A DNA stretch of 32,000 bases, from positions 120,001 through 152,000 of the forward strand of contig NZ_FNLK01000010.1 of the NCBI RefSeq assembly GCF_900105015.1, written 5' to 3'. Source of the DNA: Schaalia meyeri. GTDB taxonomy: Bacteria > Actinomycetota > Actinomycetes > Actinomycetales > Actinomycetaceae. A program made the position numbers and the translations under genes. Below the pieces are notes generated by a model. That model was not told the DNA's origin, did not search any database, and saw nothing but the letters and a program-made list of their open reading frames with translations. Below are positions 8,921-31,751 of this stretch, piece after piece (position 1 is the stretch's first letter; every line of letters begins with the position of its first letter).

Positions 8921-8924
8921 GCGC

Positions 8925-10160: not shown

Positions 10161-10222
10161 ATGCTGCGCGTCGTGCTCCCGCACCCGGTGTTCCCCGCCG
10201 CTCGTCTGCGCAGGAGACCACC

Positions 10223-14428: not shown

Positions 14429-15670
14429 TTATTTGCGGTGGTATTTGGGGCTGGTGCCCAGGTGGATTGGTGTGCCGTTTTCTGGGAGCCATAGGAGTGT
14501 TTCGTCTGTGCCGCGGTAGGAGTAGGAGGCATCGAGCGCGACGTCGTCGGAGGGTGGGATCAGTCCGTCGGCGTAGTCTTGTACCTCGCTGGTGGTGGGT
14601 TTGGATCCGCCTTCCTTTTGTGCCAGGGGGTTCTCGTCCGGGTACTGGGAGGGGTCCGTATTCACCAACGGACCAATGTTAGCGGCCCCGTACCCCGTGT
14701 ACTTGTTCCATTCGTGGTTTGGGTTCAGCCCGGTGTGGGTCAGGACTTGCAGGGTCTGGTTCGCCGTGGCATTGGGCCACTTCTGACGAGCCAGAGCCAG
14801 CAACCCGGCAACCAGTGCTGTCGAATTCGAGGTGCCTGTTGTCGTCGTTGTATTGCCGGTATCGAAGTCTCGGACATTGATTGGTCCGCCGATGGCTGCG
14901 GTGGTCACCCCGTTGCCCCAAGAGGAGTAGTTGGCGAACTTGCCGTCGCTGGTGATCGCGGACACCCCCACTACACCAGACCATCGTGATAGGTGCGTGT
15001 CGTTCTCGTCGCGCCCGTTGTTGCCGACCGATGCAACGACGATGACTCCCCGGCTCATCGCGTGGGCTATTGTCCACTTTGTTTCGTCGCTGTCGTCATG
15101 AGTTCCGCCTTGTGAAATGGAGATGATCTGGGCGCCGTCATCAATAGCCTGATTGATCAACTTACCAAAGGTGTCAAGACGCTTCCCGCCCACCGAGCAG
15201 GAACCAGGAGAAACAGAAGATTTGCCTGCAACCTGATACGTGTGCAAGGTGGCATCCGGGGCAACTCCATAATTTTGCGACACCAGGAGCGCTGCCATTT
15301 CACTCGCGTGATACCTGCTTTTGAGCGATGGTTCGATGGTGCATCGGCTTTTGTCGGTGATGTTGGCGCCCTTGAGCTCGGGATCGCTCAGCTCGACCGG
15401 GCCGTCGATGAGGGCGATAGTCACGCCCTTACCCGTATACCCCTTCGCACGAGCAGTATCCAAATGATAATAAGAAAAATACTCCTGCGTCGTAATCACA
15501 TCATCCGCAAGAGCCCGCGCAGGCACCAACACGAGAGCACCAACAGTCAGCGCCAAGACAGAAGCGGCGGCGGTCAGGACGCGCGCAGCACGCCCCACCC
15601 ACCCCGAAAGCGGGCGGGGTGGGTGGGGTGAACGAGGCGCCGCGGGGGTGGTGTGTTGCGCGTGTGTCAT
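14429..15670 (-). CDS. Secreted S8 (subtilisin-family) serine peptidase, T7SS-linked paralog 1
   Basis: 413 aa. Signal peptide (RAARVLTAAASVLALTVGALVLVPARALA/DD). Asp motif VTIALIDGPV. His region SRYHASEMAAL (non-canonical, HGT replaced by HAS). Asn region VGNNG. Ser motif GTSNSTALVAG. No C-terminal TM helix (ends ...LGTSPKYHRK). Confidence 0.88.
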   Translation of the reverse strand: MTHAQHTTPAAPRSPHPPRPLSGWVGRAARVLTAAASVLALTVGALVLVPARALADDVITTQEYFSYYHLDTARAKGYTGKGVTIALIDGPVELSDPELKGANITDKSRCTIEPSLKSRYHASEMAALLVSQNYGVAPDATLHTYQVAGKSSVSPGSCSVGGKRLDTFGKLINQAIDDGAQIISISQGGTHDDSDETKWTIAHAMSRGVIVVASVGNNGRDENDTHLSRWSGVVGVSAITSDGKFANYSSWGNGVTTAAIGGPINVRDFDTGNTTTTTGTSNSTALVAGLLALARQKWPNATANQTLQVLTHTGLNPNHEWNKYTGYGAANIGPLVNTDPSQYPDENPLAQKEGGSKPTTSEVQDYADGLIPPSDDVALDASYSYRGTDETLLWLPENGTPIHLGTSPKYHRK

Positions 15671-15678
15671 GGTTGTGG

Positions 15679-16920
15679 TTATTTGCGGTGGTATTTGGGG
15701 CTGGTGCCCAGGTGGATGGGTGTTGCGTTTTCTGGGAGCCAGAGGAGTGTTTCGTCGGTGCCGCGGTAGGAGTAGGAGGCATCGAGCGTAAAGTTGGTTG
15801 GAGGGGGGATCAGTCCGTCGGCGTAGTCTTGTACTTCGCTGGTGGTGGGTTTGGATCCGCCTTCCTTTTGTGCCAGGGGGTTCTCATCTGGGTACTGGGA
15901 GGGGTCCGTATTTACCAACGCACCCCCGTCAATGGCCCCGTACCCCGTGTACTTGTCCCACTGGTGGTTTGGGTTCAGCCCAGTATGCGTCAGCACCTGC
16001 AGGGTCTGATTCGCCGTAGCCTCCGGCCACTTCTGACGAGCCAGAGCCAGCATCCCGGCAACTAAGGGAGTGGAGATTGATGTTCCTGTTTCCTCGACGT
16101 TCTTGCCTTCGCTGTAGCTGCGTACTGTGGCGGGTCCGCCGATGGCCGCGGTGGTCACCCCGTTACCCCACGAGGAGTATTTGGCGAACTTCCCATCACT
16201 GGTGATCGCGGAGACCCCCACCACACCAGACCAGCGACCGAGGTGCGTGTCGTTCTCGTCGCGCCCCTCGTTGCCCGCCGACGCGACGACGATGACCCCC
16301 CGGCTCATCGCGTGGGCTATTGTCCACTTTGTTTCGTCGCTGTCGTCATGAGCTCCGCCTTGTGAAATGGAGATGATCTGGGCACCATCATCAATAGCCT
16401 GATTGATCAGTTTGCTGAAGGTGGCGAGAGGCTTTCCGCCTGCCGAGCAGGAACCAGAAGAAACAGAAGATTTGTTTGCAACCTGATACGTGTGCAAGGT
16501 GGCGTCAGGCGCCACCCCGTAATCACGTGAGACCAGGAAGGACGCCATCGCCGTCCCATGGGTTCTGTTTGATGCGGATGCTTCGATGGTGCATCGGCTC
16601 TTATCAGTGATGTTGGCGCCCTTGAGCTCCGGCGCGCTGGTATCCACCGGGCCGTCGATGAGGGCGATGGTCACGCCCTTACCCGTATACCCCTTCGCAC
16701 GAGCAGTATCCAAATGATAATAAGAAAAATACTCCTGCGTCGTAATCACATCATCCGCACGGGCCGACGCAGGCACCAACACGAGAGCACCAACGGCCAG
16801 CGCCAGGACGGAGGCGGCGGCGGTCAGGACGCGCGCAGCGCGCCCCACCCACCCCGAAACCAGACGGGGCGGGCGGGGCGTGAAAACATGCATGGGGTTC
16901 ACCATTGGCGAGGATCCCAT
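15679..16920 (-). CDS. Secreted S8 (subtilisin-family) serine peptidase, T7SS-linked paralog 2
   Basis: 413 aa as tracked. An alternative ATG at 16893 (MHVFTPRPPRLVSGWVG...) starts 5 nt after the upstream stop and may be the true start. Canonical motifs IALIDGPV, THGTAMAS, AGNEG, GTSISTPLVAG. No C-terminal TM helix. Confidence 0.88.
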   Translation of the reverse strand: MGSSPMVNPMHVFTPRPPRLVSGWVGRAARVLTAAASVLALAVGALVLVPASARADDVITTQEYFSYYHLDTARAKGYTGKGVTIALIDGPVDTSAPELKGANITDKSRCTIEASASNRTHGTAMASFLVSRDYGVAPDATLHTYQVANKSSVSSGSCSAGGKPLATFSKLINQAIDDGAQIISISQGGAHDDSDETKWTIAHAMSRGVIVVASAGNEGRDENDTHLGRWSGVVGVSAITSDGKFAKYSSWGNGVTTAAIGGPATVRSYSEGKNVEETGTSISTPLVAGMLALARQKWPEATANQTLQVLTHTGLNPNHQWDKYTGYGAIDGGALVNTDPSQYPDENPLAQKEGGSKPTTSEVQDYADGLIPPPTNFTLDASYSYRGTDETLLWLPENATPIHLGTSPKYHRK

Positions 16921-18401
16921 CCGTCGTCCACACGCTTAGCCGGGGTGATGCTCTGATCGTTCCCATACATCTGCGACAGGGGGTTCACATAACCCCGGGG
17001 CAGCCCGTCCTCGTCTCCTTCATCGAACGTGAAGGCCACGTACTTGCGCTTGCGGCCTTTACGATCTTGTTTGCCCGCGCCCGCACCGGCGCCGGCACCA
17101 CCACCCATGAAGCCGCGCCCACCCGCGCCGCCCTTGCCCGCCGAGCCCGCGGCGCCGGCAGCGCCACTGCCGTTCGCGCCGGCCGCGCCCGTGACGCCAG
17201 AGGCGCCCGAGCCCGCGGTGCCGTTTGCGCCAGCGGACGTCGAGGGGGGAGTATAGGAACCAAACCCAGACCCAGAATAAGAACCAACCTTGAGCCCGCC
17301 AGCGGCGCCCAGACCACCCGAGCCCATGCGGGCCGCACCACGCATACCCAGCGCGCCAGCACCCAGCACACCCGCACCACCCAAACGACCAGCCGCAGAC
17401 GAATCAGAGGCACGACCCCCGTTAAGGCGCCACAACGGATGATCCACATCCGCCGCAGGAGCCGGCGTATGACCCCCCACAACACCATTACGATACGCCG
17501 TACCATTAACACGCCGATGCAACAAATCCGTATCCATCAAATCCTGAGGATCCGTAATCGGATTCGTCCGCGACCCCACATCCCCATACGAAGGCTCCCG
17601 CGTAGGCAACGCACCCGAAGCAACCGTCCGATTACGAGCCGCAGCCGCATCAGCCTCACTCCACCACGGCTGATCAAACCCACCCGGATAATCACCCGAA
17701 GAAGGACTACGACCACCCTGGCGACCAAAACCATTCCCAGAAGAATAAACCGAGGGATTGTTGGAACCATTTCCCGAGCCAGGCTCCGTTCCGCCGCGTG
17801 GTTTCTCGAAGTCTTCGCCGATGTCTTTTCCTGGGTCCGGTGCCTCGGTGCCACCGCCCTGTGTCATCCCGGCACCAAGCGCTGTGGTAAGACCGTTGAC
17901 CATGTTCAGTACGCGCGATGCCGCGGCTTCGCGCTGGGCGTTGTTTTGCTCCTCAACCGCAGACGCGTAGGCCTCGCCGGTCGTGAAACGCATCCCCAAC
18001 AGTGACACGCCACCCCCCGGCTCACTCTCAGGAACCGCAACAAGCGGAGCACCACGCATCGCCGCAGTCTTCGCATCCAACAAATCCGGCGAAAGCAACT
18101 CCGCCTCCTTCAGGGCGTTCGCCATCACCTGGCGTCCTGCCACGTACGTGTTGTACCCCTGCTGGTACCTCCTCCGGTATTCCTCGATGCGGCTGATCGA
18201 TCGGTCCACCCACTGGTCCATCGCGTCCCCGGTCTTACCCGTAAAACCATGACCATCGCGATACGCCTTCAAACGATCAATCGCCTGCTCAAAACCCTGG
18301 ATCGTCTTCTCGTGATCAGAATCCCACGCAGCCAACCCACGATTGGCCCGGGCCGCCTCCATAAACACCTTCAAACGCTCATACATCGGCGACGAAACCA
18401 T
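16899..18401 (-). CDS. Candidate T7SS substrate: helical N-terminal domain plus PGRS-like Gly/Ala/Ser-rich region and short charged C-terminal domain
   Basis: ATG 18401 has GAAAGGAAG ending 6 nt upstream; the track starts at TTG 18407. The N-terminal ~110 aa are predicted helix-turn-helix, with FTGKTGDAMDQW at the turn (WXG-like position). A long Gly-rich tract follows (GGAGVLGAGALG..., GANGTAGSGASGVTGAAGANGSGAAGAAGSAGKGGAGG...). The 3' end abuts or overlaps the S8 paralog 2 start. Function is inferred from context only. Confidence 0.7.
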   Translation of the reverse strand: MVSSPMYERLKVFMEAARANRGLAAWDSDHEKTIQGFEQAIDRLKAYRDGHGFTGKTGDAMDQWVDRSISRIEEYRRRYQQGYNTYVAGRQVMANALKEAELLSPDLLDAKTAAMRGAPLVAVPESEPGGGVSLLGMRFTTGEAYASAVEEQNNAQREAAASRVLNMVNGLTTALGAGMTQGGGTEAPDPGKDIGEDFEKPRGGTEPGSGNGSNNPSVYSSGNGFGRQGGRSPSSGDYPGGFDQPWWSEADAAAARNRTVASGALPTREPSYGDVGSRTNPITDPQDLMDTDLLHRRVNGTAYRNGVVGGHTPAPAADVDHPLWRLNGGRASDSSAAGRLGGAGVLGAGALGMRGAARMGSGGLGAAGGLKVGSYSGSGFGSYTPPSTSAGANGTAGSGASGVTGAAGANGSGAAGAAGSAGKGGAGGRGFMGGGAGAGAGAGKQDRKGRKRKYVAFTFDEGDEDGLPRGYVNPLSQMYGNDQSITPAKRVDDGWDPRQW

Positions 18402-18427
18402 GATCAACTTCCTTTCTACAACAACTC

Positions 18428-19546: not shown

Positions 19547-19614
19547 AACTACTCCCCTTACTTTCAGACTGGTCAATCATACGCACCCCGGGGGGCGCCG
19601 TGTCAAGAATGTGA

Positions 19615-22600
19615 TCACATAGAGGGAGGGGTCCACGACATCTGCGCGGCCACCACCCCCAGATCGCGGTGGACGACCTGCGCGCGTCCCGCCACCGCGC
19701 GCCTGGGTTTCACGCCGTTAATGACCGCGCCCTCCTTGGGATTGCCGGACAGCAGGATGCCGGTGACCGCCAGGTCGCCCATCATCTGTATCACCTTCTC
19801 GAAGGCCGCGCGCGACGCGCCACCCATGCGGCGCGTGATGATCACGTGCAGGCCGATATCGCCCGCCTGCGGCAGCAGATCCAGCATCTCCATCAGCGGG
19901 TTGCCCGACGTGGTGGCCACCAGATCGTAGTCGTCAACCAGGATCCACACCTCGGGACCCGACCACCACGTCCGCTCGCGGATCTGCTCCGGCGTCACGT
20001 CCGATCCGGGCAGGCGCGTGCGCAGGAACTTCGCCAGGTCGCGCAACTGTCCCATAGCCTCCTGGTGGTTGGTCAGGTACCGCAGAGAATAATCCTCGGG
20101 GATGTCGCCCAGCAGGGAGCGGCGCATATCGAGCGTCACGATCTTTGCCTCGGAAGGAGAGTACAGGCGCGTGATCTCCTGGATGATGGAACGCAAGAAC
20201 GCCGTCTTGCCCGTCTTTGCGTCGCCGAAAAGATACAGGTGCGACTCCGAGCGCGTGTTGAACATGAGCGGCCCCAGGCGGGACTCCTCCACGCCCAGGA
20301 TCATGTCGCCGCCGCCGCGCGGCAGAATCTGCTGCTCCGGCAGCTGAGACAGGATCTCCTGGGTCGTGATCAGCTCCGGCAGCAGGCGCAGCTTCGGCCC
20401 CTCGCCGGCCACCAAGGACTCGCGAATCTTTTCCACCGTATAGGTAACGCCCTGTGACACGGTGGCCGGATCCTGGTCCTCGTCCGCGCGGGGCAGGGCC
20501 ACCATCATCTCGTGCCCCACCATGTCGATGCCGCGACCCGGCCGCCCCTTCGGAATACGGGCCGCACCGTCGCGGTTGACGATCGACTCCTTCGGATTCG
20601 CCGTGTGCAGCTCCAGCCTGGACCCGAAAATATCCTGCGCCTCCGAACGAATGTCCATCCAGCGAGCCGCAGAAACCACCAGGTGAACGCCCAAGGACAG
20701 GCCGCGGCTCATCATCGTCGTCACCTCTTTATCCAGGCTGTCGAACTCCGAACGCAGCGCGCCCCAACCGTCGACCACCAAGAACACGTCGCCGTAACCA
20801 TCATCGAAACGCCCCTCCTGGCGCCCCCGCCGGTACGTGTCCATCGAATCGATGCCGTGCTGACGGAAATACCGCTCGCGATCATCCATGATGGACGCGA
20901 TCTCCGCCAGCATACGCGTGCGCGCCTCGGGCGTGTCGCGCGTCGTGATGCCGGCAACGTGCGGTGCGCCATCGAAACCAGCAAACGTGCCGCCACCGAA
21001 GTCCATCACATAGAACTGGACCTCCTGCGGCGTGTAAGTCAGCGACAGGGCCTGCACGATCGTACGCAGCGTCGTCGACTTACCCGTCTGCGGGCCACCC
21101 ACCAGCGCAAAGTTACCGCCCGCACCCGACAGGTCCAAGATCAGCGTCTCGCGGCGCTGCTCCAGCGGCAAGTCGACCGTGCCCAAGGGGACGCGCAGCG
21201 TCCCAGACTCGCGCCACGCGCGCGACACAAAGCCCAGATCCGGGTCCGGCCCCAGATCCGGCATCAGCGTGGCGAACGTATCCGGGATCTCCAGAGGCGG
21301 CAACCACACCTGGTGAGCCGGGTAGCCCTTCCCCTTCATCTTCGCCACGGCGATGTCCATCTCAGACATGTCCGCCCACTCCTCGTCGCCAGCCAGGACC
21401 ACCTCCTGACTCTGATCGACCTCCTCCTCTTCATCACCCATCGAATCCTCGCGCGTGATCACGGGAGCCACAGTAAACGGCAGGATCTCAATCGGAGCGC
21501 TGGGAGCGCCAGCCGTCGACGCCTCGGAAATGGACGCCAACGTTCGGGCCGGCGGGGGAGCCGCCACGTAAGACGCGCGGAAACGGACCAGCCCGTCGCC
21601 GCCAGCCTTCAAGAACCCCGAACCCGGCAAAGGCGGCAGCTTCGCCGCGTCAGGAATACCCAAAACCTCGCGCGAATCGTTCTCCGTGAACGTCTTCAGC
21701 GCCACGCGATACGACAGGTGCGATTCCAGGCCCCGCGCCTTACCCAAATCCATCTTCTGGGAGGCCAACAACAGGTGCACCGACAGCGAACGACCCAGAC
21801 GGCCGATCATGATGAACACCTCGCCGAACTCCGGCTTGGCCACCAGCATTTCCGTGAACTCGTCCAGGACGATAAACAGCGCCGGCAGCGGCGGGAAATC
21901 ATGCTTGCCCGCCAAACGGTCCGCCTCGTAGTCGCTCACGTTCGCATAGTTACCCGCCTGGCGCAGCATCTCCTGGCGGCGAACCATCTCACCCTGCAGC
22001 GCATCCTGCATGCGATCAACCAGCGACAGCTCCGACTCCAGGTTCGAAATCATGGCCGACACGTGCGGCAGATCAGCCATGCCGGCGAAGGTCGCGCCAC
22101 CCTTGAAGTCCACCAGCACCAGGTTCAACTGTTCGGGAGAGTGCGTCAGCGCCAACGCCAACACCAGCGTGCGCAACACCTCGGACTTACCCGAACCCGT
22201 CGCGCCGATCAACAGGCCGTGCGGACCCATACCCTGCTGGGCGGATTCCTTAATGTCCAGCACCACCGGCTTGCCCTCGGGCGTCACCGCGAAGGGCGCG
22301 GCCAAGCGTTCGCGGCCCTCGCGGCGCGTCCACTGCCTCTCCGGGTCGAAATCGCGAATATCACCAATACCGATCAGCTCCATCAGATCCATCTGACGGG
22401 ACTCATCCGAGCGGCCCATCGGCGTGTCCGCCTCTTCCAGGCTCTGCTGGGTCGCAAACGGCGTCATACGCCGGGCGACGGCCTCCGCCTGAATCGCGGA
22501 CAGACGGTCGGCGTGCGCTGTCTCGGGAACCGCGTCCATGGTCACCACGTCGATCACGTCCAAACCATTGTGATCCGGGCTGGGGTGGATCACCAGACGC

Positions 22601-23661
22601 AGCGCCGTGTGCGACTTCATCGGGGTCCACTCGCGCGCACGGCTCATCACCGTCACGCCCCGCACCCCCGCCATCGAAGCGAAGGGGGACGTGGACGGGA
22701 ATTCGGCCCCGTCACACACCAGCAACAGATGAGGCCACTCCGGCATGTCATCGCCCGGCCTGAAAGCCCCGCGCATCGGGATTTCCGGGCCGATCATCTC
22801 CGCCAACTCCGCCGGATCCGTCGAAATCATGCGACCGGGGCCCACCGCGTCACGCACCACCGCCGAGCGTGCCTGGGGCATCCACTTCACCCATTCCCAG
22901 TCATTCAGACGATCCGCGGAGCACAGGACCGCGATCTTCAGTTTCGACGGCTCAATGAAGCATGCCACGTGCATCATGATCGCGCGCATCTCGTCGTAGA
23001 CGGCCTCGCCCTCGCCCGCAACCTCGATGTGGCTGTAATCACCCAGGTACAGGAACTTGCCCACGTTATCCGTGTGGTCGTGGACCCCGATAAAACGATC
23101 CATCGCAGACAGGCACACCACGTCCATCTCCGTCATCGGATCGATCGGCGGACGGTTGAACGTGAGCCCCAGGGGCTGCGTGCCGCTGCCATAGCGGAAC
23201 GCCAGCAAATCGTACGTGTTGCCCTCGCGTGACCACAGGCGCGCCCCGTTGGCCGCCAGGGTCACCAGTGCATCCGGGTCCGGGTACACCCAGTTGTAGT
23301 AGGCCCGCTGCTTCTTGACAACCTTGCGCACAGCCTCGCGCGTCTTAGCCAGATACGACAGGTATTCGCGCCGCTGAGTCACCACGCGCGTCCGATACTG
23401 CGCGAACTGGCGATAAATGTTGAAGCCCACCATGCCCAGCATCGCGACCAGCATGCCGCCGCCCATCAGCATCGAACGCGTGCCGCCGGTCTGCAGGGCC
23501 ATGAAAACCATGACACCCGTGGATCCCAGCATCGGGACGACCATCATCAAGACGTTACCCATCGCTGCGGGTTCGGCCTTCTCCGGCGGTATCTGCAGGT
23601 CAAGGGTGCCGGAGGGCTGCTCCGGAACCTTAGCAGTGCGCCGTTTCTTGCGTGTAACCAT
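19615..23661 (-). CDS. eccC: Type VII secretion FtsK/SpoIIIE-family ATPase EccC (fused EccCa/EccCb, three P-loop domains)
   Basis: 1348 aa. GAGGAGA 5 nt upstream of ATG 23661. Two N-terminal TM helices. Walker A motifs GATGSGKSE, GGPQTGKST and GDAKTGKTA, each in an FtsK-like domain. Confidence 0.95.
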   Translation of the reverse strand: MVTRKKRRTAKVPEQPSGTLDLQIPPEKAEPAAMGNVLMMVVPMLGSTGVMVFMALQTGGTRSMLMGGGMLVAMLGMVGFNIYRQFAQYRTRVVTQRREYLSYLAKTREAVRKVVKKQRAYYNWVYPDPDALVTLAANGARLWSREGNTYDLLAFRYGSGTQPLGLTFNRPPIDPMTEMDVVCLSAMDRFIGVHDHTDNVGKFLYLGDYSHIEVAGEGEAVYDEMRAIMMHVACFIEPSKLKIAVLCSADRLNDWEWVKWMPQARSAVVRDAVGPGRMISTDPAELAEMIGPEIPMRGAFRPGDDMPEWPHLLLVCDGAEFPSTSPFASMAGVRGVTVMSRAREWTPMKSHTALRLVIHPSPDHNGLDVIDVVTMDAVPETAHADRLSAIQAEAVARRMTPFATQQSLEEADTPMGRSDESRQMDLMELIGIGDIRDFDPERQWTRREGRERLAAPFAVTPEGKPVVLDIKESAQQGMGPHGLLIGATGSGKSEVLRTLVLALALTHSPEQLNLVLVDFKGGATFAGMADLPHVSAMISNLESELSLVDRMQDALQGEMVRRQEMLRQAGNYANVSDYEADRLAGKHDFPPLPALFIVLDEFTEMLVAKPEFGEVFIMIGRLGRSLSVHLLLASQKMDLGKARGLESHLSYRVALKTFTENDSREVLGIPDAAKLPPLPGSGFLKAGGDGLVRFRASYVAAPPPARTLASISEASTAGAPSAPIEILPFTVAPVITREDSMGDEEEEVDQSQEVVLAGDEEWADMSEMDIAVAKMKGKGYPAHQVWLPPLEIPDTFATLMPDLGPDPDLGFVSRAWRESGTLRVPLGTVDLPLEQRRETLILDLSGAGGNFALVGGPQTGKSTTLRTIVQALSLTYTPQEVQFYVMDFGGGTFAGFDGAPHVAGITTRDTPEARTRMLAEIASIMDDRERYFRQHGIDSMDTYRRGRQEGRFDDGYGDVFLVVDGWGALRSEFDSLDKEVTTMMSRGLSLGVHLVVSAARWMDIRSEAQDIFGSRLELHTANPKESIVNRDGAARIPKGRPGRGIDMVGHEMMVALPRADEDQDPATVSQGVTYTVEKIRESLVAGEGPKLRLLPELITTQEILSQLPEQQILPRGGGDMILGVEESRLGPLMFNTRSESHLYLFGDAKTGKTAFLRSIIQEITRLYSPSEAKIVTLDMRRSLLGDIPEDYSLRYLTNHQEAMGQLRDLAKFLRTRLPGSDVTPEQIRERTWWSGPEVWILVDDYDLVATTSGNPLMEMLDLLPQAGDIGLHVIITRRMGGASRAAFEKVIQMMGDLAVTGILLSGNPKEGAVINGVKPRRAVAGRAQVVHRDLGVVAAQMSWTPPSM

Positions 23662-23799
23662 CGGGTCTCCTCGCGCTGCGCGCCTCCGTGTTCGATGCGA
23701 TTTCCCCCAGTGTAGCGGAGTGGACTTCCAAGTTTTAACCGACGGTTAGCCGCGGTGCACTACACTGGTCACTGTTGTATCCCTGAGATCGGAGGTCCC
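23662..23799. promoter_or_regulatory. Divergent eccC / eccD intergenic control region with 9-bp inverted repeat
   Basis: 138-bp gap between divergent start codons. CCAGTGTAG (23707-23715) and its exact complement CTACACTGG (23760-23768). GGAGG RBS at 23791-23795 for eccD. No promoter hexamers confidently identified. Confidence 0.4.
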
Positions 23800-25221
23800 A
23801 TGAGCGCCAACATGGTGTCCGTGACCGTTATCGACCAGGACGGCGCCTCCGATTTCGCCGCCCCCCAAGGGACCACGGTCGCAGGATTGTGCGCCATGCT
23901 GGCCATCGACCTGACCGTGCCCTCAGTCCGCTTGACACACGCGGACGGACGCCCGCTGGACAGCGGTTCCGTCCTGGGACAGGAACTGCCCTCCGGATCC
24001 ATGATCGCGCTCTCCAGCCGCGTCCTGTCTGCCCAACAGATCAACGAGGCATCGGCGCGCCAGGAGAACCAGTGGCTGTCCCCCGTGCTGGCCCTGGTCG
24101 GCCTCTGTTTCCTGCTCATCGGCGCCATCAGCTCCCTGTGCCTGCTGCCCCTGGTCGCCGACGCCGCCCTCAGCCAATTTACGCACCCGGAGGACGGACC
24201 CACCTGGGCTCTCGTTGCCTCGTCAATCCCGATCTGGCTGCGCATCCTGTGCTCCCTGATCTGCTGCGCCGCCGCTGCCGCGCCCCTCTTCGTCTCTCGG
24301 TCCGTTCGCTCGCGGCCCGTGATGCTCCTGCTGATGCCTGCCCTCGCCGGATACAGCGCGATCGGCTTCGTGTCGGCCACGGGACTGCACGCCCTGTCCG
24401 TCGCGCCCGTCGTCGGGGTCTGGGTCGCCCTGGTGGTCGCCCTGGCCGTGGTCTCGCTGACGGCCGCCCCCTCCGCGATCAGCGCGATGCTCGCCTGGGT
24501 CGGCGCGACCGCCCTGGTGACGATCAGCGCCTACCCCCTCTTTCACCTGATCGACATCGCTCCGTTGGCCGTCGTGCTGGGCATTTATCTTCTCCTCATG
24601 GCGCCCCGCCTCGCGCTGCGCGTGCCCGACAGTCAGCTCGTTGACGTTTCCGCCGTCCTCACGATCGCCTCCCGCATCCGCCAGGCCCCGACCCAACCCC
24701 CCAGCCCCGTCACCGGCGGGCGCATGGCGACCGCCCTGGGGCACACGGGCGCCCGCAACACTCTGCTGGTGACGGCCTCCGCCATCTTCGTCCTGGCGGG
24801 AGGCATCCCCCTGGCGCGCACCGTCACCCCGACCATCGAAATGGGGCGGGGGCTGGCAGGCTTCATTCTGGTGATCGCGGCGATCCTCACCCTGCTCACC
24901 GCGCCCCGCGCCACCCGAAGCCACCTGGGCCGCATCCTGCCTCGTATCGGGGCCGCCGGCCTGGCGTGCGCCTTCCTCTTCGGCAGCTGGGTCCAATCCT
25001 GGACTGCCCCCGTCGGCATGTACCCCCTGATTCCGATGTGCGTCCTGGTTATCGTCGGCATCTCCATAGCCGCCTGGGCGACACTGTACGAGCCGCAGGG
25101 GCACGCGGCACTGGTCGGCACCATCCTCGATTTCCTCCAAACCTTCTGCATCTTTACACTCTTCCCCGCGGCATTCATGGCCTCGGGCCTGTTCGCGTTC
25201 GCCTGGAGGGCGGTCCTGTAA
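23800..25221 (+). CDS. eccD: Type VII secretion integral membrane protein EccD (paralog 1)
   Basis: ATG 23800 with GGAGG 5 nt upstream; the track start 23755 is a GTG extension. N-terminal YukD/ubiquitin-like beta-grasp (VSVTVIDQDGASDFAAPQGTTVAGLCAMLAIDLT...RLTHADGRPLD...). About 11 hydrophobic helices follow. Confidence 0.85.
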   Translation: MSANMVSVTVIDQDGASDFAAPQGTTVAGLCAMLAIDLTVPSVRLTHADGRPLDSGSVLGQELPSGSMIALSSRVLSAQQINEASARQENQWLSPVLALVGLCFLLIGAISSLCLLPLVADAALSQFTHPEDGPTWALVASSIPIWLRILCSLICCAAAAAPLFVSRSVRSRPVMLLLMPALAGYSAIGFVSATGLHALSVAPVVGVWVALVVALAVVSLTAAPSAISAMLAWVGATALVTISAYPLFHLIDIAPLAVVLGIYLLLMAPRLALRVPDSQLVDVSAVLTIASRIRQAPTQPPSPVTGGRMATALGHTGARNTLLVTASAIFVLAGGIPLARTVTPTIEMGRGLAGFILVIAAILTLLTAPRATRSHLGRILPRIGAAGLACAFLFGSWVQSWTAPVGMYPLIPMCVLVIVGISIAAWATLYEPQGHAALVGTILDFLQTFCIFTLFPAAFMASGLFAFAWRAVL

Positions 25222-26882
25222 TGCCTGACACCACAACGACTCCTTTCGCCCCCGCGACCGCGACGCGACTCGTGGGCGCCTACTTCGTCGACCTGGCGGT
25301 CCTCGGCGCGCTGGCCGGTGCGACCTGGTTCGTGTACTTCACGCCCCTGACGATCACCTTCATCACCGTCGAGGCCGTGGTGGCCTCCGCGATCATGCTG
25401 GGTGCCACCGGACGCACCCCCGGCATGGCGGCCATGCGTGTGTGCCTGATCCGTGACGAAACAGACGCGCAAACCCCCTCCCTCGGCGCCGCCCTGGCCT
25501 ACACGGCCATGACCGTGGCGCTCCAGCTGACCGTCGTCGGCCCCCTCGCCGCGCTCGCCATGGTCCGTGATGGACACACCTGGCTCACCGGAGCGACCCG
25601 CACCCGCCTGGTCGACCTGCGCAAGCACGCGGCGCTCGCGACGGGACCCGCCGCCGTCGGCATGGGGGAGGGGGCCGACCGGCCCCGCCCGGGGCAGGCC
25701 CCCAGCGGATTCGACAGCGTCCACACCAGCCCGGTGTCACAGGAATGGGACGCTCCGACCTCCCCGCTCATGTCAGCCCCCCACGCGATTGACTACTCCG
25801 TGCCCGGAGTCCCGGGTGGTTCCAGTGATTCCACTGTTTCGGGCTACGCCGCACCGGGATTCCCCGGTGGTTCCACTGTTCCGGACTATTCCGCGCCCGG
25901 AGGCCCGGATGGTTCCAGTGATTCCACTGTTTCGGGCTACGCCGCGCCGGGATTCCCCGGTGGTTCCAGCGGCGCCGGTAGCTCTAGTGGCCCCGGTGTT
26001 TCAGGCTATTCCGCGTCCGGACGCTCTGCCGGTCCCAGTGGCCCCAGTGGGCCGGGCTACGCCGCGTCGCAGCAGAGCGTCCCGCCGACCGTGCCGCCGC
26101 GCGCCCCCGTTCCCCCAGCTTCCTCCGATCCCTCGCTCCGCGGGGCCTTAGCCCCGCAAGTCCCTGCGGCCCCCGCCCCCTCCCGGGAGCAGTCCAGCGA
26201 GTCCACGCAATTCGATGCGATTCTTGCGCCTGCCTCGGATACCTCTGGAGGCTCTGGTTTCATGCCCGAGCACCCCGCGCCGCCGCGTACCGCCGTATCC
26301 GGCTCGCGGGTTCCACCCGCCGCCCCCCCAGGAAACGGGGATGTGCCCGGCCGACAGGTGCCCGCGCAGCCAGCCCAGGCCTCGTATGCGATCGGGCAGC
26401 CGGAGAGTGACGCCGCCGGGCAATACGCGCCTCGCACGTCGGGCGTGCCCGCGCCGCCGCCCAGCCGACGCGCCTACCAGGCCGCCCGCAGGAATGATCC
26501 CGACCGGTTGCAGGGGGGTGCTCCCGCCGCGTCGACATCCAGCCCCCTGCTGTGGCTCATCTTCGATTCTGGGCAACGCGAACTCATTGACGCTCCCCTG
26601 ACCCTCGGGCGCGCGCCAGCGTCCGACGAAGGCTCGCGCGCCGTCGTGGTCCCCGACACGACCGTATCGCTGTCGCGCACGCACATGCGTGTCGGCCCCG
26701 CAGCAAGCGGCGCGTGGATCGAAGATGCGTTCTCGGCGAATGGGACGCAGATCCGGACGCCAGACGGGCGCATCGCTGCGCTGGCGGGCGGGCAGGCGGT
26801 CGAGGTTCCCGCAGGCACCGAGATCCTGATGGGGGAGCGGCGCGCCACCATCGTCTACGCCGACGCGGATTCGGTGCGGTGA
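25221..26882 (+). CDS. RDD-domain membrane protein fused to a Pro/Ser/Gly-rich linker and a C-terminal FHA domain
   Basis: ATG 25221 overlaps the eccD stop (TAATG); the track ORF from 24966 is an in-gene extension. RDD family signature (RLVGAYFVDLAVLGALAG ... GRTPGMAAMRVCLIRDETD) with TM helices. About 330-aa low-complexity linker. FHA signature LTLGRAP...TVSLSRTHMRV...IEDAFSANGTQI. Confidence 0.85.
   Translation: MPDTTTTPFAPATATRLVGAYFVDLAVLGALAGATWFVYFTPLTITFITVEAVVASAIMLGATGRTPGMAAMRVCLIRDETDAQTPSLGAALAYTAMTVALQLTVVGPLAALAMVRDGHTWLTGATRTRLVDLRKHAALATGPAAVGMGEGADRPRPGQAPSGFDSVHTSPVSQEWDAPTSPLMSAPHAIDYSVPGVPGGSSDSTVSGYAAPGFPGGSTVPDYSAPGGPDGSSDSTVSGYAAPGFPGGSSGAGSSSGPGVSGYSASGRSAGPSGPSGPGYAASQQSVPPTVPPRAPVPPASSDPSLRGALAPQVPAAPAPSREQSSESTQFDAILAPASDTSGGSGFMPEHPAPPRTAVSGSRVPPAAPPGNGDVPGRQVPAQPAQASYAIGQPESDAAGQYAPRTSGVPAPPPSRRAYQAARRNDPDRLQGGAPAASTSSPLLWLIFDSGQRELIDAPLTLGRAPASDEGSRAVVVPDTTVSLSRTHMRVGPAASGAWIEDAFSANGTQIRTPDGRIAALAGGQAVEVPAGTEILMGERRATIVYADADSVR
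25818..25967 (+). repeat. Near-perfect 57-nt direct repeat with 93-nt period inside the RDD-FHA linker
   Basis: GGTTCCAGTGATTCCACTGTTTCGGGCTACGCCGC[A/G]CCGGGATTCCCCGGTGGTTCC occurs at 25818-25874 and 25911-25967 with one mismatch. It encodes GSSDSTVSGYAAPGFPGGS twice. Confidence 0.85.
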
Positions 26883-27348
26883 TCGCGAGCGGTAGCCGTC
26901 GCTAAAGGCGGCTTCACGGCAGCACGCCGCCCGATGATCGACGCTGTCAAGCAGTAGGCGGACGGGGTCGTGTCCTCCTTCAGATCGCTCACGACGCCTC
27001 TCGCCCCATACCCTAGGATTTGAGGCGCGTTGACCCGCATACGCGCGCCGTCTTTCGATGGTGGTGTATTTGGTGGGTTGGGTGTCTGGTGCGGGGTTGG
27101 GATGGTGGGTGGGCGAGGAGGGGCAGGAGTTGGTAGTCCGGGTTTGTTTCGAGGCGCGTTGGCTCACTTGGCGCGCATAAATCTTGCTGAGGTGTTCGTG
27201 GTGGGCAGCCCTGTTCGCGGGCATGTATGCGCCTTAGCGTGCGCCGTAGAGGGCTGCGCGTATCTTAGCGGGTTGAGAACAGTCAGCCCGATAACGGGGG
27301 TGTGGCCTGCGTGGATGGGGGTGAGCGCGCGGCGCGCGTGAGTCCCGC

Positions 27349-27500
27349 ATCTGGATAGGAAACGGCTTCGTGGATAGGAAACGGCCACCTGGATAGGTTA
27401 CGAGCTTCTGGATAGGTTAATAACCTATCCACGAGTGCATAACCTATCCAGAAACGCACTTCCTATCCACGAACCAGCCGCAAAGGGCAGCAACACCAGC
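27349..27500. repeat. Iteron module A: 4 forward + 3 inverted TGGATAGG cores at exact 19-bp spacing around a 23-bp perfect palindrome
   Basis: TGGATAGG starts at 27352, 27371, 27390 and 27409. CCTATCCA starts at 27424, 27443 and 27462. Palindrome TGGATAGGTTA-A-TAACCTATCCA at 27409-27431. Conserved tail CGAACCAGCCGCAAAGGGCAGCAACACCAGC at 27470-27500. Confidence 0.9.
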
Positions 27501-27571
27501 GGTAGATCATGCGTTTGGGCGGGTCGCCAATCGCAGGCACCGCTTTTTGGGCGATGTTGACGGCAGCCCTG

Positions 27572-27823
27572 CATCTGGATTAGGAAACAGACATGCGGGG
27601 AAATAGTATCTGGGAGATAGTGCTGGGCCGTCGTCGTGGCGGACAGGGAGCAGGCACACGGAGAAACGGACACCTGGATAGGAAACGGCTTCGTGGATAG
27701 GTTACGAGCTTCTGGATAGGTTAATAACCTATCCACGAGCGCACTTCCTATCCAGCAACGCACTTCCTATCCAGCAACAAGCTTCCTATCCACGAACCAG
27801 CCGCAAAAGGCAGCGACACCAGC
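27572..27823. repeat. Iteron module B: 3 forward + 4 inverted cores at 19-bp spacing around the same palindrome, plus a displaced degenerate unit
   Basis: TGGATAGG starts at 27675, 27694 and 27713. CCTATCCA starts at 27728, 27747, 27766 and 27785. Palindrome at 27713-27735, 304 bp from module A. Degenerate CATCTGGATTAGGAAAC at 27573-27589. Tail CGAACCAGCCGCAAAAGGCAGCGACACCAGC at 27793-27823. Confidence 0.9.
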
Positions 27824-28130: not shown

Positions 28131-28412
28131 TCAGAAGCGGGAAGCGCTGGACTGGTCCGTCTGCTGGTAGTTCGTACGCGCCGAGTCAACGGCGGTCGAG
28201 GTGCGACGCAGGACGTCCTTCAGGCCCTCGAGGCCCTCGTTCCACTTGCGCTGGGCGGCCTGGTAGGCTTCCTGAGCCTGGCCTTCCCACGATGCGACCA
28301 GCTGGTTGAGCGTCTGCTCGAGGTCGCTCAGGCAGCTATCGAGGTTGCCGGCACCGGTGTTGATGTCAGCGGCGGCCTGATCGAGGGCGCCGTACTGTAC
28401 CTGGAAATCCAT
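28131..28412 (-). CDS. WXG100 family type VII secretion target (carries C-terminal YxxxD motif)
   Basis: 93 aa. AGGAGA 5 nt upstream of ATG 28412. WXG motif in LVASWEGQAQEAYQ. C-terminal NYQQTD fits the YxxxD/E export signal. Confidence 0.9.
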   Translation of the reverse strand: MDFQVQYGALDQAAADINTGAGNLDSCLSDLEQTLNQLVASWEGQAQEAYQAAQRKWNEGLEGLKDVLRRTSTAVDSARTNYQQTDQSSASRF

Positions 28413-28433: not shown

Positions 28434-28739
28434 TCACAGTCCGCCGAGAAGCTGGGAGAACGAGCTCTCAGTATCAGCCTCGTTGGCTTCCATGGACTGG
28501 TGCGTGCCGCGCAGCTTGTCAGCGAGCTCCTGCAGAGCCTCGTTAACCTTGGTGGCGTTCTCATCCCACTGCTGCATCAGCTGCTGGAACTTGAGAGCGG
28601 CCTCACCAGTCCAGGCGCCGCCGACGGATGACAGGTCGCCCCTGAGGCGGGAGAAGTGACCCTGTAGGTCGGCGTAGGTCGACTCGATTGCCTGTACGCC
28701 CTTAGGAAGGGCGCCTTCCTCGGCCCTCTGGTCTGCCAT
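28434..28739 (-). CDS. WXG100 family type VII secretion target (partner)
   Basis: 102 aa from ATG 28739, with GGAGG 6 nt upstream; the track ORF extends to 28799. WXG motif in VGGAWTGEAALKFQ. Lies 21 nt upstream of the second WXG100 gene, the typical esx pair arrangement. Confidence 0.88.
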   Translation of the reverse strand: MADQRAEEGALPKGVQAIESTYADLQGHFSRLRGDLSSVGGAWTGEAALKFQQLMQQWDENATKVNEALQELADKLRGTHQSMEANEADTESSFSQLLGGL

Positions 28740-28934
28740 GTGAACCTCCATTTGTATGAGTGGACTCTCCCGCGGGGATGCGTGAGAGCATGGGGACATA
28801 CGAATACTAACCGTGTTTCCGATACTTTTATAGATGTTACGCGAAAATCATGACAAATCCTGACCGACAACCTAAACTTACAGGGTTGTGTCGTGTAGTC
28901 AAAAACCCCATCACGCGGCACCGGGGAGGATTCG
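28740..28934. promoter_or_regulatory. Divergent control region between the WXG100 pair and eccD paralog 2
   Basis: 195-bp relatively AT-rich gap (…GATACTTTTATAGATGTTACGCGAAAATCATGACAAATCC…) between divergent start codons. GGGGAGGA RBS before ATG 28935. Promoter elements not confidently assignable by eye. Confidence 0.4.
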
Positions 28935-30296
28935 ATGGCATCGAAAACATCTCGTGGAGTGGCACTGATCCCGCTCACGATTACCTATGGCGTGGATCGC
29001 AACGATGTGACGATTCCGCAGTCGATACCGCTGGTTGAGCTGCTCCCCGGACTGGTTGAGTCTGCCGGTGCTTTCACTGATGAGCCCACAAATGACGGGT
29101 TTGCGGTGCGTACCGCGTCAGGGCGCCTGCTCGATCAGTCGAAGTCGCTGTCCGCACAGGGAGTTCGCGCGGGCGCCTCCCTGACGCTTGAGCCCCTGGG
29201 CGAAGGCGCGGCGGACATGGTTTACGACGATCTGACCGAAGCGGTCGGACAAGTCATCGAAAGGGTGTCCACGCCTTGGACGCGTGAGGATACTCGCACC
29301 TTCGCCGCACTGTCCGCGGCCGCCCTGGTTTTTGTCGCCGCAGTCCTGTTGGCGACCACGCCCCCGGATGCGATTGCCTCCCTGCAGCCCGGGCGCATCA
29401 CGATGCTGAACTACGTGTACGGTGCGATTGGCGTCGTCTCCGCGCTGCTCGTCACCGGCACCTCGGCGGTGGTGACCCGGAAGCACCCGGGGCCCAGCGG
29501 TATCGCCCTGGCTCACACCGCGCCCTTCTTGACCGCCGCCGCGGCCCTGCGTCTGACTCAAAGCCAGTGGAGCGCGGGCGGCTGGATCGCGATTGGGTCC
29601 GGATTGCTGATCGGATCGGTTGCCGCGCTGACGCTGCCGAAGCGCTATCGGATTTCGATCGCTGCGCCGATAGTCCTCGGTTCCATAATTGCCGCGACCG
29701 GCCTCATGGTGCATTTTGGGGCGCTCTCGCAGGTCGGCGTTTCTGCCGTTCTCTTTGCCTTCGTTATCGTGTTGCTGCAGGTTGCGCCGTGGGTGGCGTT
29801 GGCCCACATTCCCGTGCGCATCCTGGACGCGAACACCAGTGAGCAGATTCCCGCTCAGGGGGTGACGGACCAGGTCAGTACCTCCTTCGTCTTCGTCGTG
29901 GCTCTGCGCTCCGGCGGCGCGCTCGCCGCAATCTTCCTGGCCGTCTCGATGATGGCCGCGCCCAGCATTCGTTCGGTCTTCCTCCCGCTGGTTTTGATCC
30001 TGCTCGGTTCGGTCTCCCTGATCCTACAGACCCGCTCCATCCGCGCCCGCGTCGAGGTTCTGCTCGGTGCGCTCACCGGCCTGACGACGATCCTGGTCGC
30101 CGCGACCCTCGCGACCCGCGCGGATCCGACGACACTGTCGTGGATCACCCTCTCGTCAATCGCCGCCGCCTTGATCCTGGTGGTCACGAACGTCGTCGGG
30201 CCTCGCGCCCGCCCGCACCTGACGCGCATCGCGGACACGATTTCTGTGCTGTCGCTCTTTGTCCTGATCCCTCTGGCCGTCTACCTCTGGGGCTGA
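28935..30296 (+). CDS. eccD: Type VII secretion integral membrane protein EccD (paralog 2, divergent)
   Basis: 453 aa. N-terminal YukD/ubiquitin-like domain (LIPLTITYGVDRNDVTIPQSIPLVELLPGLV...FAVRTASGRLLDQSKSLSAQGVRAGASLTLEP). About 11 hydrophobic helices follow. Only weak sequence similarity to the 23800-25221 product. Confidence 0.85.
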   Translation: MASKTSRGVALIPLTITYGVDRNDVTIPQSIPLVELLPGLVESAGAFTDEPTNDGFAVRTASGRLLDQSKSLSAQGVRAGASLTLEPLGEGAADMVYDDLTEAVGQVIERVSTPWTREDTRTFAALSAAALVFVAAVLLATTPPDAIASLQPGRITMLNYVYGAIGVVSALLVTGTSAVVTRKHPGPSGIALAHTAPFLTAAAALRLTQSQWSAGGWIAIGSGLLIGSVAALTLPKRYRISIAAPIVLGSIIAATGLMVHFGALSQVGVSAVLFAFVIVLLQVAPWVALAHIPVRILDANTSEQIPAQGVTDQVSTSFVFVVALRSGGALAAIFLAVSMMAAPSIRSVFLPLVLILLGSVSLILQTRSIRARVEVLLGALTGLTTILVAATLATRADPTTLSWITLSSIAAALILVVTNVVGPRARPHLTRIADTISVLSLFVLIPLAVYLWG

Positions 30297-30299: not shown

Positions 30300-31751
30300 A
30301 TGCCGTCGAGTAAAGACATTCTTGAAGCCCAGCGTTTCAACCGCAACCGCCTGATCACCGCATTCACGTCGGGCACGCCGGACGGCCACGAGGTCGACAC
30401 TCCCTCCCCCGTGCGCCCGCTGATTTTCGGCACAGTCGTCGCCGTCATCATGTGCGTCGTCGGATTGGGCATCCGTTTCTTCAACCCGAATCCGGACCTG
30501 ACCGCCTCGAACTACGTGTTGGTTGACGTCAAGTCCACTGGCGCCCGGTATTTCTGGGCGAACGGCGTGCTTCACCCGATCACGAACGTGACGACGGCCA
30601 GGCTCCTGGCCCAGGAGTCGGGGCTTGAGGTCATCTCGGCCAGCGCCTCGGCCCTCAAGGACATCCCGCGAGGTGCACAGATCGGCCTGCCCGGCGTCCC
30701 CGACGACGTGCCCGCTTCGTCGCAGCTGGGCCACACGTGGCTGTCGTGCGACCTGGAAGATACGTACCACACGTGGATCGCCGAGTCCCTGCCAACCGAC
30801 AACTTCCCCCTGAAAGCGGCCACGTCGGCGCTGGTGACCCCCGATCACGGGGCCACCAAGTACTTCGTGGATGGAACCACGAACAAAAAGTACCTGGTCG
30901 ACGAAACCGATAGCCGACAGAGCGAGTGGGCGCTCGCCTTCCAAAACATCATGGGCTATCCGATCGAGGCAGAACCCGCGTGGGTGGACCTGTTCCCCTC
31001 CGGCACGCCGCTGAAGTCGTGGAGCTACTCGGACATCCCGAACGCCGGACAGCCCGCGAACGAGCTGCCGGGACCGCTAAAGAATGAAAACCTGACGATC
31101 GGCACGGTCATCCAGCAGACCAGCACGAACGGAGAGGTCCTGAACTCATACCTGGTCCTCACTTCGTCGCAGCTGGCGGTGTTTAACTCGACTGCCTCGC
31201 GCCTGTACAAGGACGCGCCGCCCACCCGGCCCTTCCCGACGGACATGTTCAAGGATGTGACCCCCGTTCACGCGGACTTTATCGGCGAAGACTGGCCGCT
31301 CTACGAGCACTTTGCCGACGCCCAGTGGGCCGACCCGAAGGCGGACGCCTCAAGCCGCACCGCCCTGTGCGCTCAGATGTCCACCACCGACCACGCGGTG
31401 CCTCAGCTCGGACTGTACGTGATGCCCAACCAGCGGGCCGTTCAGGCCGCATACGACGCCGAATCCGTGTCCTCCACCTCCGGCCCGACCACCACGCGCA
31501 CGGTGACGGTCGCGGGTGGCTCCGGCGCGCTCGTCGCAATCACCTCGGGAGGCGGAGAGGCTGCGGCCTACGCGTTCGTCTCTGACCAGGGGCACATGCA
31601 CTCCCTCGGGGCCTCTCCCAGTGCGTCGATCAACGCGCTCGGCTGGGCCCAGACGGACGCCTCCGCAATCCCCGAGGCCTGGGCGCTCCTTATCCCGCCC
31701 GGTACCGACCTGACGCCCCAGGCCGCGGCGACCTCAGTGGGGTTGTCGTGA
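30300..31751 (+). CDS. eccB: Type VII secretion protein EccB
   Basis: 483 aa; ATG lies 3 nt after the eccD2 stop. EccB hallmarks: N-terminal SKDILEAQRFNRNRL, a single TM helix (LIFGTVVAVIMCVVGLGI), then YVLV...GVLHPITNVTTARLL...IPRGAQIGLPGVPD...WLSCD. Confidence 0.9.
   Translation: MPSSKDILEAQRFNRNRLITAFTSGTPDGHEVDTPSPVRPLIFGTVVAVIMCVVGLGIRFFNPNPDLTASNYVLVDVKSTGARYFWANGVLHPITNVTTARLLAQESGLEVISASASALKDIPRGAQIGLPGVPDDVPASSQLGHTWLSCDLEDTYHTWIAESLPTDNFPLKAATSALVTPDHGATKYFVDGTTNKKYLVDETDSRQSEWALAFQNIMGYPIEAEPAWVDLFPSGTPLKSWSYSDIPNAGQPANELPGPLKNENLTIGTVIQQTSTNGEVLNSYLVLTSSQLAVFNSTASRLYKDAPPTRPFPTDMFKDVTPVHADFIGEDWPLYEHFADAQWADPKADASSRTALCAQMSTTDHAVPQLGLYVMPNQRAVQAAYDAESVSSTSGPTTTRTVTVAGGSGALVAITSGGGEAAAYAFVSDQGHMHSLGASPSASINALGWAQTDASAIPEAWALLIPPGTDLTPQAAATSVGLS

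Follow-up and report, generated by a model that had tools for sequence, protein, structure and literature searches.

The closest described counterpart of the locus examined here is the Esx secretion system of Schaalia odontolytica F0309, studied by Wang et al. of the Mougous laboratory (bioRxiv preprint of 9 September 2026, PMC13622651; statements about it refer to the accessible part of its text). That system defends the bacterium against parasitic Saccharibacteria, restricting the parasitic epibiont TM7-008 by means of the effector pair AesA/AesB (PMC13622651). Our subject is a gene in a type VII secretion system (T7SS) locus of Schaalia meyeri, contained in a window of 32,000 nucleotides (RefSeq assembly GCF_900105015.1, contig NZ_FNLK01000010.1, positions 120,001 to 152,000 of the forward strand); by the window we mean this whole stretch. 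The gene encodes a protein with an N-terminal RDD-type membrane domain, a disordered linker and, at the C-terminus, an FHA domain, called the RDD-FHA protein below, and is translationally coupled to a gene for a divergent EccD paralogue. Outside the mycobacteria, little is known of what turns actinobacterial ESX/T7SS machines on or sets the order of their substrates.

The Esr parts of F0309 are a surface filament with Ig repeats and a beta-propeller (EsrA), a MoxR protein, a vWA protein, the transglutaminase EsrD, the Ser/Thr kinase EsrE, the phosphatase EsrF (in cluster 1 only) and an FHA output, EsrG (PMC13622651). The esx operons incorporate the Esr2 cluster, and deletion of esrA2 abolished AesA/AesB secretion with EsxA/B secretion kept and Esx protein levels unchanged, which points to post-translational control (PMC13622651). 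Upon epibiont infection the disordered linker of EsrG1 becomes phosphorylated on Thr (T152, or T263 in S. meyeri), and this protein carried the sole infection-dependent phospho-site detected proteome-wide in F0309, where Esr2 may have been inactive (PMC13622651). For EsrG2, which also has a C-terminal FHA domain, the authors propose that the FHA domain modulates EccC, and EsrG-EccC fusions occur in other genomes (PMC13622651).

The RDD-FHA protein is most probably the EsrG2 orthologue, because the window holds an AesB homologue with the GYVNP motif, a phosphatase-free sensor module and exactly one FHA-encoding open reading frame (ORF), that of the RDD-FHA gene itself. The GYVNP motif and domain layout of AesB are described in the preprint (PMC13622651), and an AesB homologue with this motif thus ties the window to the F0309 system. 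The two loci come from the same genus and agree in their Esx content (EccC, EsxA/B and AesB with GYVNP), in a C-terminal FHA domain and in several parts of a flanking sensor module (Ig-repeat protein, vWA/DUF58, transglutaminase and Ser/Thr kinase) with no phosphatase in the cluster. They differ in that no MoxR gene was found next to the window's sensor module, while the RDD domain, the EccD paralogue and the translational coupling are absent from the preprint's accessible text. EsrG1 resembles our protein in its order of domain, long disordered linker and C-terminal FHA domain and in being the output of a surface-sensor module that contains a kinase, as ours probably is. However, EsrG1 is soluble, has a pseudophosphatase-like domain, controls transcription and is encoded away from esx, whereas an RDD domain anchors our protein in the membrane and its gene is coupled to that of an EccD paralogue.

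The same logic operates in the H1 type VI secretion system of Pseudomonas aeruginosa, where a receptor Hanks kinase and an FHA scaffold (the Fha1/PpkA/PppA pathway) gate secretion post-translationally, but there the secretion system is unrelated, Fha1 is soluble and the PP2C phosphatase is a dedicated one. FhaB/FipA (Rv0019c) of Mycobacterium tuberculosis is likewise small and membrane-anchored with a C-terminal FHA domain; unlike our protein, it has a single transmembrane (TM) helix, no RDD domain, no long linker and a cell-division context. From other T7SS variants, Garrett et al. (2024, PMC11217815) had reported kinases and PPM phosphatases, as well as FHA domains on proteins of their own, TseJ and TsfJ, the latter anchored in the membrane. 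These two proteins, of the T7SSe and T7SSf loci of Bacillota, share with ours their separate status in loci with kinases and/or PPM phosphatases and, for TsfJ, a predicted membrane anchoring by two TM helices (PMC11217815), but they have an N-terminal DUF6382 in place of RDD, belong to another phylum and T7SS subtype, and have no EccD partner. Assembly in T7SSb requires an FHA fold in physical association with the T7SS ATPase, EssC/YukB having N-terminal FHA domains. There the FHA domains are fused in cis, are without the phosphothreonine-binding residues and bind the EssB pseudokinase phospho-independently (PMC11217815), whereas in S. meyeri the FHA domain stands in trans and keeps all the phosphothreonine-binding residues.

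An operon of an EccD paralogue and the RDD-FHA gene

The RDD-FHA gene is the second gene of a two-gene operon and is translationally coupled to the divergent EccD paralogue. As the first-pass annotation of this DNA had recorded, its start overlaps the upstream stop: the TAA of the upstream ORF occupies 25219-25221 and the ATG 25221-25223, with the A in common, and a GGAGGG lies 12-17 nt 5' of the ATG. The ORF agrees in length with the database gene call (P0001, 553 aa), and an identical 553-aa product is on record. Close homologues number more than 500; the closest named relatives come from 'Actinomyces sp. HMSC062G12' (99% identity) and from Schaalia meyeri, where the product is called 'RDD family protein'. 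On this evidence the DNA belongs to an oral Schaalia of the group formerly called Actinomyces odontolyticus.

Taken as a single sequence, the EccD paralogue (473 aa in the database gene calls) gave no Pfam or NCBIfam match and no BLASTP similarity to the canonical EccD of the window. Its family nevertheless aligns by hhalign with the canonical YukD+EccD family (96.9%, E 1.7e-10, 390 columns including the N-terminal ubiquitin-like region), and its most distant detected homologue, P0240, carries PF19053. The name eccD1, given to the gene in the first pass, is therefore a fair one for this divergent paralogue.

Conservation of the locus was assessed in two sets of relatives. Twenty-two related loci came from GTDB species representatives belonging to Schaalia, Pauljensenia or 'Actinomyces' (two of them mislabelled Xylanimonas and Sanguibacter). 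The pattern-based genome scan reached only Schaalia/Pauljensenia, and the more distant relatives were taken from an exhaustive HMMER search with residues 1-150 of the RDD-FHA protein against 1.84 billion representative proteins (58 proteins at E≤1e-3). All 22 near loci share one gene order wherever the contig allows it to be read: eccC on the minus strand, the EccD paralogue followed by RDD-FHA on the plus strand, esxA and esxB on the minus strand, and eccD and eccB on the plus strand. The TAATG overlap and the GGAGGG are kept in the Schaalia/Pauljensenia loci.

The ten distant members looked up belong to metagenomic genomes and to genomes resembling those of Actinomyces culturomici, S. hyovaginalis and Propionibacterium. 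Every one has a gene directly upstream of RDD-FHA, which carries PF19053 in nine cases and is a cut gene in the other. Among the six distant junctions read as DNA, five show an ATGA or GTGA overlap and one a 2-nt gap; for the remaining loci the gene calls show 4-nt overlaps. A convergent WXG100 pair follows downstream in 9/10, and then YukD-EccD, EccB and MycP. Synteny next to eccD in T7SS loci, which the first pass had put forward for checking, thus extends over 22/22 Schaalia/Pauljensenia loci and 10 distant ones, in two orders.

The window holds a T7SSa/ESX-type set of EccB, EccC, EccD, MycP and a WXG100 pair (Table 1). Pfam gave no FHA match in its EccC, in keeping with the earlier statement that actinobacterial EccC is without this domain. 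No conserved phospho-acceptor Thr was found in the short N-terminal tail of EccC; the Thr of a juxtamembrane 'T-x-R-R-E-Y-L' is conserved and probably structural. The Hanks-type receptor kinase noted earlier at about 11 kb has intact VAVK, HRDIKPSN and DFG motifs and one TM helix followed by an ectodomain of ~120 aa; by its sequence it is a catalytically intact kinase of receptor type. A co-directional block (filament protein, DUF58, transglutaminase, kinase) ends with this gene and is separated from the RDD-FHA gene by the eccC operon. The absence of a PP2C phosphatase from the window also stands, with no PP2C match in any scanned gene.

Domains of the RDD-FHA protein

The first pass had described a canonical C-terminal FHA domain and had named an FHA score below threshold as grounds for giving up its reading. 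The score is indeed below threshold: the full-length protein has no Pfam FHA match at E≤0.1, and the C-terminal 120 aa alone reach 15.5 bits (PF00498, E 0.023) against a gathering threshold of 20.7. The assignment nevertheless survives deeper tests. Across 18 Schaalia sequences there is no variation in G463-R464, S485-R486-x-H488 or S505-x-N507-G508-T509, and in the 34 diverse members of the family the residues of the phosphothreonine pocket (GR, SxxH and NG; G463, R464, S485, H488, N507, G508) either do not vary or are conserved to 90% or more. Pfam FHA matches 24/46 aligned family members at E≤0.01 (best E 3.7e-7), and the GR...SRxH...SxNGT signature stands at the C-terminus of 35/46, the other 11 looking truncated.

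A PDB search with a shallow profile, built on six FHA sequences from Schaalia that are nearly identical, was uninformative (top matches SOD1 and GroEL at E>0.2), and the profile was replaced by one of 34 diverse C-terminal sequences. This gave 21 PDB matches at E≤0.01, all FHA domains (best 2e-6), with ArnA, FhaA/Rv0020c, GarA, OdhI, Rv1747, CT664, Vps64 and DgcB among the relatives. An AlphaFold2 (AF2) model of the domain from the 34-sequence alignment is an 11-stranded beta-sandwich with pLDDT 95.1, and all 50 PDB matches listed by Foldseek for it are FHA domains (probability 1.00, TM 0.57-0.78). The best NCBIfam match is FhaB/FipA Rv0019c (NF049868; E 7.5e-5), over the FHA region only; with 18.9-22.8 bits against a cutoff of 125, the protein is not a member of that family. 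We conclude that the FHA domain is canonical and predict that it is competent for phosphothreonine binding.

The RDD assignment is of the same kind. Hydropathy shows three hydrophobic segments (residues ~17-40, 41-63 and 88-115), and Pfam RDD (PF06271) scores 14.5 bits on the full-length protein and 16.8 bits on aa 1-160, below the gathering threshold of 24.1. At the level of the family the claim of an N-terminal RDD domain holds, with matches in 25/46 aligned members at E≤0.01 (best E 4.3e-13). About 45 of the 58 proteins found with residues 1-150 are only 27-37% identical to our protein. R16, D24 and D79 were read by eye, not from a hidden Markov model (HMM) alignment, as RDD signature residues, and R16 and D24 are conserved. 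A full-length AF2 model from a shallow 18-sequence alignment (pLDDT 35) was unusable for the RDD fold. Because the single-sequence scores are sub-threshold, both the FHA and the RDD assignments rest on family-level evidence. RDD domains are reported to have a conserved intramembrane binding site that faces the cytoplasm (Aravind's group, PMC12419801).

Between the two domains lies a linker rich in Pro (52), Ser (46), Gly (42) and Ala (41), which measures ~290 aa (residues ~146-435) and not the ~330 aa given earlier. In the 18 Schaalia orthologues the first 145 and the last 115 residues are near-invariant, while the linker differs in sequence and length. The DNA that encodes it contains a 93-nt tandem repeat at 25791-25968 (1.9 copies, 94% match, nested 42- and 51-nt periods, Tandem Repeats Finder), which accounts for the protein length polymorphism among close strains (494-567 aa).

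A possible gate on late-substrate export

On balance we think it probable, if by no means certain, that the RDD-FHA protein is a membrane-anchored phosphothreonine reader of an ESX-type T7SS that gates export of late substrates on a kinase signal. Coupled translation would place it beside the EccD paralogue in the T7SS membrane complex, with the RDD domain as anchor and the FHA domain in the cytoplasm. Upon an external cue (epibiont contact in S. odontolytica) the receptor kinase at 12.7-14.2 kb would phosphorylate threonines, either in the linker of the RDD-FHA protein itself or in a T7SS component. Binding of the FHA domain to this ligand would change the state of EccC or of the membrane complex and so license the export of AesA/AesB, and the basal export of EsxA/EsxB would not depend on such binding. 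The first pass had suggested that a membrane protein supplies an FHA module in trans and links secretion to Ser/Thr kinase signalling; synteny and the pathway experiments in S. odontolytica support this.

We infer that the RDD domain sits in or beside the T7SS membrane complex with EccD as the obvious partner, and EccD, not EccC alone, may be where the protein docks. The FHA domain should be cytoplasmic, because all bacterial FHA and kinase chemistry known to us is cytoplasmic, because EsrG-EccC fusions join FHA to the ATPase, and because the segment after the third TM helix is rich in Lys and Arg (a weak count). A membrane-bound phosphothreonine reader next to the machine, with a receptor kinase and its surface sensor not far away, would make the locus a tractable case of post-translational T7SS gating.

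Several observations weigh against this reading. Three TM helices put the N- and C-termini on opposite sides of the membrane, and the positive-inside count is ambiguous, weakly favouring a cytoplasmic C-terminus with the segment after the third helix richest in Lys and Arg. None of the linker Thr is invariant in the 18-sequence Schaalia alignment, and a phospho-site in cis is therefore not evident. No kinase lies within 10 kb in three distant loci (L025, L028, L031), so a link to a dedicated kinase is not universal. In favour of a kinase link, on the other hand, kinase and transglutaminase genes are adjacent in L026, L027, L030 and L032, with a cut DUF58 gene seen in L026, and L027 has a second RDD-FHA paralogue next to its kinase. 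With the EccD paralogue adjacent throughout and no nearby kinase in three of the loci, the association of RDD-FHA with the paralogue is closer than that with the kinase. In two distant Actinomycetaceae loci (L030, 1685-3612; L032, 1915-4406) the operon of eccC continues downstream with genes for a PP2C phosphatase and for a second, soluble FHA protein of 415-542 aa, so that these loci, which also have a kinase/transglutaminase block, hold two different FHA proteins per T7SS locus; there the soluble protein, not RDD-FHA, could be the main signalling output. In the preprint's accessible text EsrG2 is named only twice, in the Discussion, without a deletion, phospho-site or interaction (PMC13622651). 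Our assignment to EsrG2 is also not confirmed by the OBNOAD locus tags, for which the Results and Methods numbering disagree and the AesA/AesB order misfits. If the Results numbering is followed, the two uninduced genes between the induced 00322-00326 and 00329-00338 might be the EccD-paralogue/RDD-FHA operon.

The FHA domain might instead act in cis, binding phosphothreonine of its own linker within or between molecules and working through conformational change or oligomerization, not through docking on EccC. GarA/OdhI and the Rv1747 regulatory module are models for such a switch, and they and FhaA recur among the PDB relatives of our profile. The order of domain, intrinsically disordered region and FHA domain is that of EsrG1, whose disordered region is phosphorylated (PMC13622651), and the linker of the RDD-FHA protein has 10 Thr, all between residues 169 and 406. 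We consider this unlikely, however, since within Schaalia none of the Thr in the linker is conserved and a whole subclade lacks the 'TQFD' motif; the infection-dependent site of F0309 was moreover found on EsrG1, with the reservation that Esr2 may not have been active. Very improbable, in our view, is a role apart from secretion gating, in which RDD would bind a membrane ligand as an envelope or lipid sensor, FHA would relay the signal to the envelope, and the position in the T7SS locus would reflect co-regulation. FhaB/FipA, a membrane FHA protein of mycobacterial division, provides the model and is the best NCBIfam match, but the match is confined to the FHA region at 22.8 bits against the cutoff of 125. 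The cytoplasm-facing intramembrane site of RDD domains would suit a sensor (PMC12419801), whereas the stop/start overlap with the EccD paralogue is kept across two orders, which makes co-regulation alone hard to accept.

The tight pairing with the EccD paralogue, adjacent in 32/32 loci read, and the three loci without a nearby kinase would also fit a constitutive structural subunit, that is, a core component of a T7SS subtype with two EccDs and no EccE, whose FHA domain serves as a phospho-independent interaction module and replaces EccE. EssC offers the precedent of FHA domains that act without phosphothreonine binding (PMC11217815), and no Pfam EccE match was found in the scanned window genes or in nine related contexts, as judged from precomputed Pfam matches with ~10 kb flanks for a window that ends inside the locus. 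We nevertheless hold a purely structural role to be distinctly unlikely, as the phosphothreonine-contacting residues that the EssC FHA domains are without (PMC11217815) are near-invariant in the 34 family members, and kinases, with PP2C phosphatases in some loci, are frequent neighbours. [quoted passage not shown] It would then be separate from the soluble PP2C-linked FHA protein of L030 and L032, would be present without an adjacent kinase as in L025, L028 and L031, and would not be merely one of many interchangeable Esr outputs.

Returning to gating by a membrane-anchored reader, the post-translational model has already been published as a proposal for EsrG2, and the idea itself is no longer new. 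New here are the anchoring by an RDD domain, the obligate coupling to an EccD that is both second and divergent, the spread over Actinomycetales and Propionibacteriales, and, in some genomes, the coexistence with a PP2C-linked FHA protein. The anchor, the coupling and the distinction from the PP2C-linked protein give handles on the EsrG2 model.

Sensor module and other features of the locus

Table 1. Features of the S. meyeri window, with positions counted from its first nucleotide.
Feature	Position	Strand	Basis and remarks
Surface filament protein, 2013 aa, EsrA2-like	2879..8920	+	Big_9/cadherin/fn3 repeats; N-terminal signal anchor; ~390-aa N-terminal region without assignment
DUF58 (vWA-type) protein	8745..10160	+	DUF58 E 9.3e-09; ORF start overlaps previous gene, true start probably after 8920
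Transglutaminase-like protein, EsrD2-like	10106..12718	+	Transglut_core E 5.3e-18
Receptor-type Hanks Ser/Thr kinase, EsrE2-like	12565..14214	+	Pkinase E 1.4e-39; likely start ~12715
Two tandem mycosin (MycP) genes	14429..16920 (14429-15670, 15679-16920)	-	Peptidase_S8 and TIGR03921
AesB homologue, Esx effector, Gly-rich disordered region and GYVNP	16899..18407	-	Translation has 'PRGYVNP' near the C-terminus
EccC ATPase	19615..23661	-	FtsK_SpoIIIE E 2.1e-77, 3 stretches; divergent from the EccD-paralogue/RDD-FHA pair
Divergent EccD paralogue	23755..25221	+	Likely start ATG 23800 (473 aa); hhalign against canonical EccD
TAATG stop/start overlap	25219..25223	+	Read from DNA; indicates translational coupling
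RDD-FHA gene (RDD / disordered linker / FHA)	25221..26882	+	ORF translation, 553 aa; probable EsrG2 orthologue
RDD-type membrane domain, aa 1-145	25221..25655	+	Sub-threshold Pfam RDD, family matches, hydropathy
Pro/Ser/Gly/Ala-rich disordered linker, aa 146-435	25656..26525	+	Composition, alignment gaps and variability, AF2 pLDDT <50
FHA domain with GR, SRxH, SxNGT, aa 436-553	26526..26879	+	Motifs, family profile, AF2 model, Foldseek
WXG100 protein, EsxA-like	28131..28412	-	WXG100 E 1.6e-21; convergent with the RDD-FHA gene
WXG100 protein, EsxB-like	28434..28799	-	WXG100 E 1.7e-15
Canonical EccD (YukD ubiquitin-like and EccD TM domain)	28935..30296	+	PF19053 E 1.7e-12, PF08817 E 3.7e-11
EccB	30300..31751	+	PF05108 E 3.6e-49

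The sensor module of the window also looks translationally coupled, since the likely kinase ATG overlaps the stop of the transglutaminase gene (12715-12718) and the DUF58 ORF adjoins the end of the surface-protein gene (8745-8920); in L026 the module is coupled by 4-nt overlaps. Pfam gave no beta-propeller match in the EsrA-like protein.

Between the kinase and eccC the two MycP copies are 85% identical over 400 aa, and related Schaalia loci have one copy at this place; around the catalytic His, H-A-S in the upstream-most copy takes the place of H-G-T in the other. Just upstream of the AesB homologue lies a small helical protein (18428-19012, minus strand), probably AesA. Between it and eccC is a protein of 187 aa (19013-19576) that has a hydrophobic segment at its N-terminus and no family match.

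The convergent gap between the RDD-FHA gene and esxA is 1.25 kb long, compared with ~0.25-0.35 kb in some related loci, and holds two imperfect palindromic modules (~27350-27475 and ~27674-27796, within 27340-27800). Each consists of 3-4 direct TGGATAGG copies at an exact spacing of 19 nt, followed by 3-4 inverted copies; the pattern TGGATAGG-N11-TGGATAGG has 10 matches where 0 are expected. None of the 29 related loci compared contains the motif, and an Rfam scan of the repeat-rich intergenic region gave chance-level matches only. Either a small mobile element or an array of protein-binding sites could explain the modules. Directly 3' of esxA, at 28080-28109, a perfect 14-nt GC-rich inverted repeat (GAGGGGCCGCCCCA / TGGGGCGGCCCCTC, 2-nt loop) is probably the terminator of the esxBA operon.

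Some public names in this family are misleading (among P0002, P0218, P0174 and P0224): 'translation initiation factor 2' stands for the RDD-FHA protein and 'putative ABC thiamine transporter' for the EccD paralogue. Several assemblies that bear the locus are labelled Xylanimonas, Sanguibacter, Isoptericola or Thermobifida and are Schaalia-like in sequence. An Opitutus FHA match from the pattern-based scan (L023) proved spurious. Besides the EccD-coupled copy, L027 has a second RDD / disordered linker / FHA paralogue of 515 aa (16559-18106), which scores 144.7 bits with the family FHA HMM and is located between mycP and the Ser/Thr kinase. Behind the same T7SS core, the Propionibacterium-like L025 has a transposase as well as TNT-toxin and Imm61-like immunity genes (16745-21518), which suggests antibacterial toxin cargo in that lineage.

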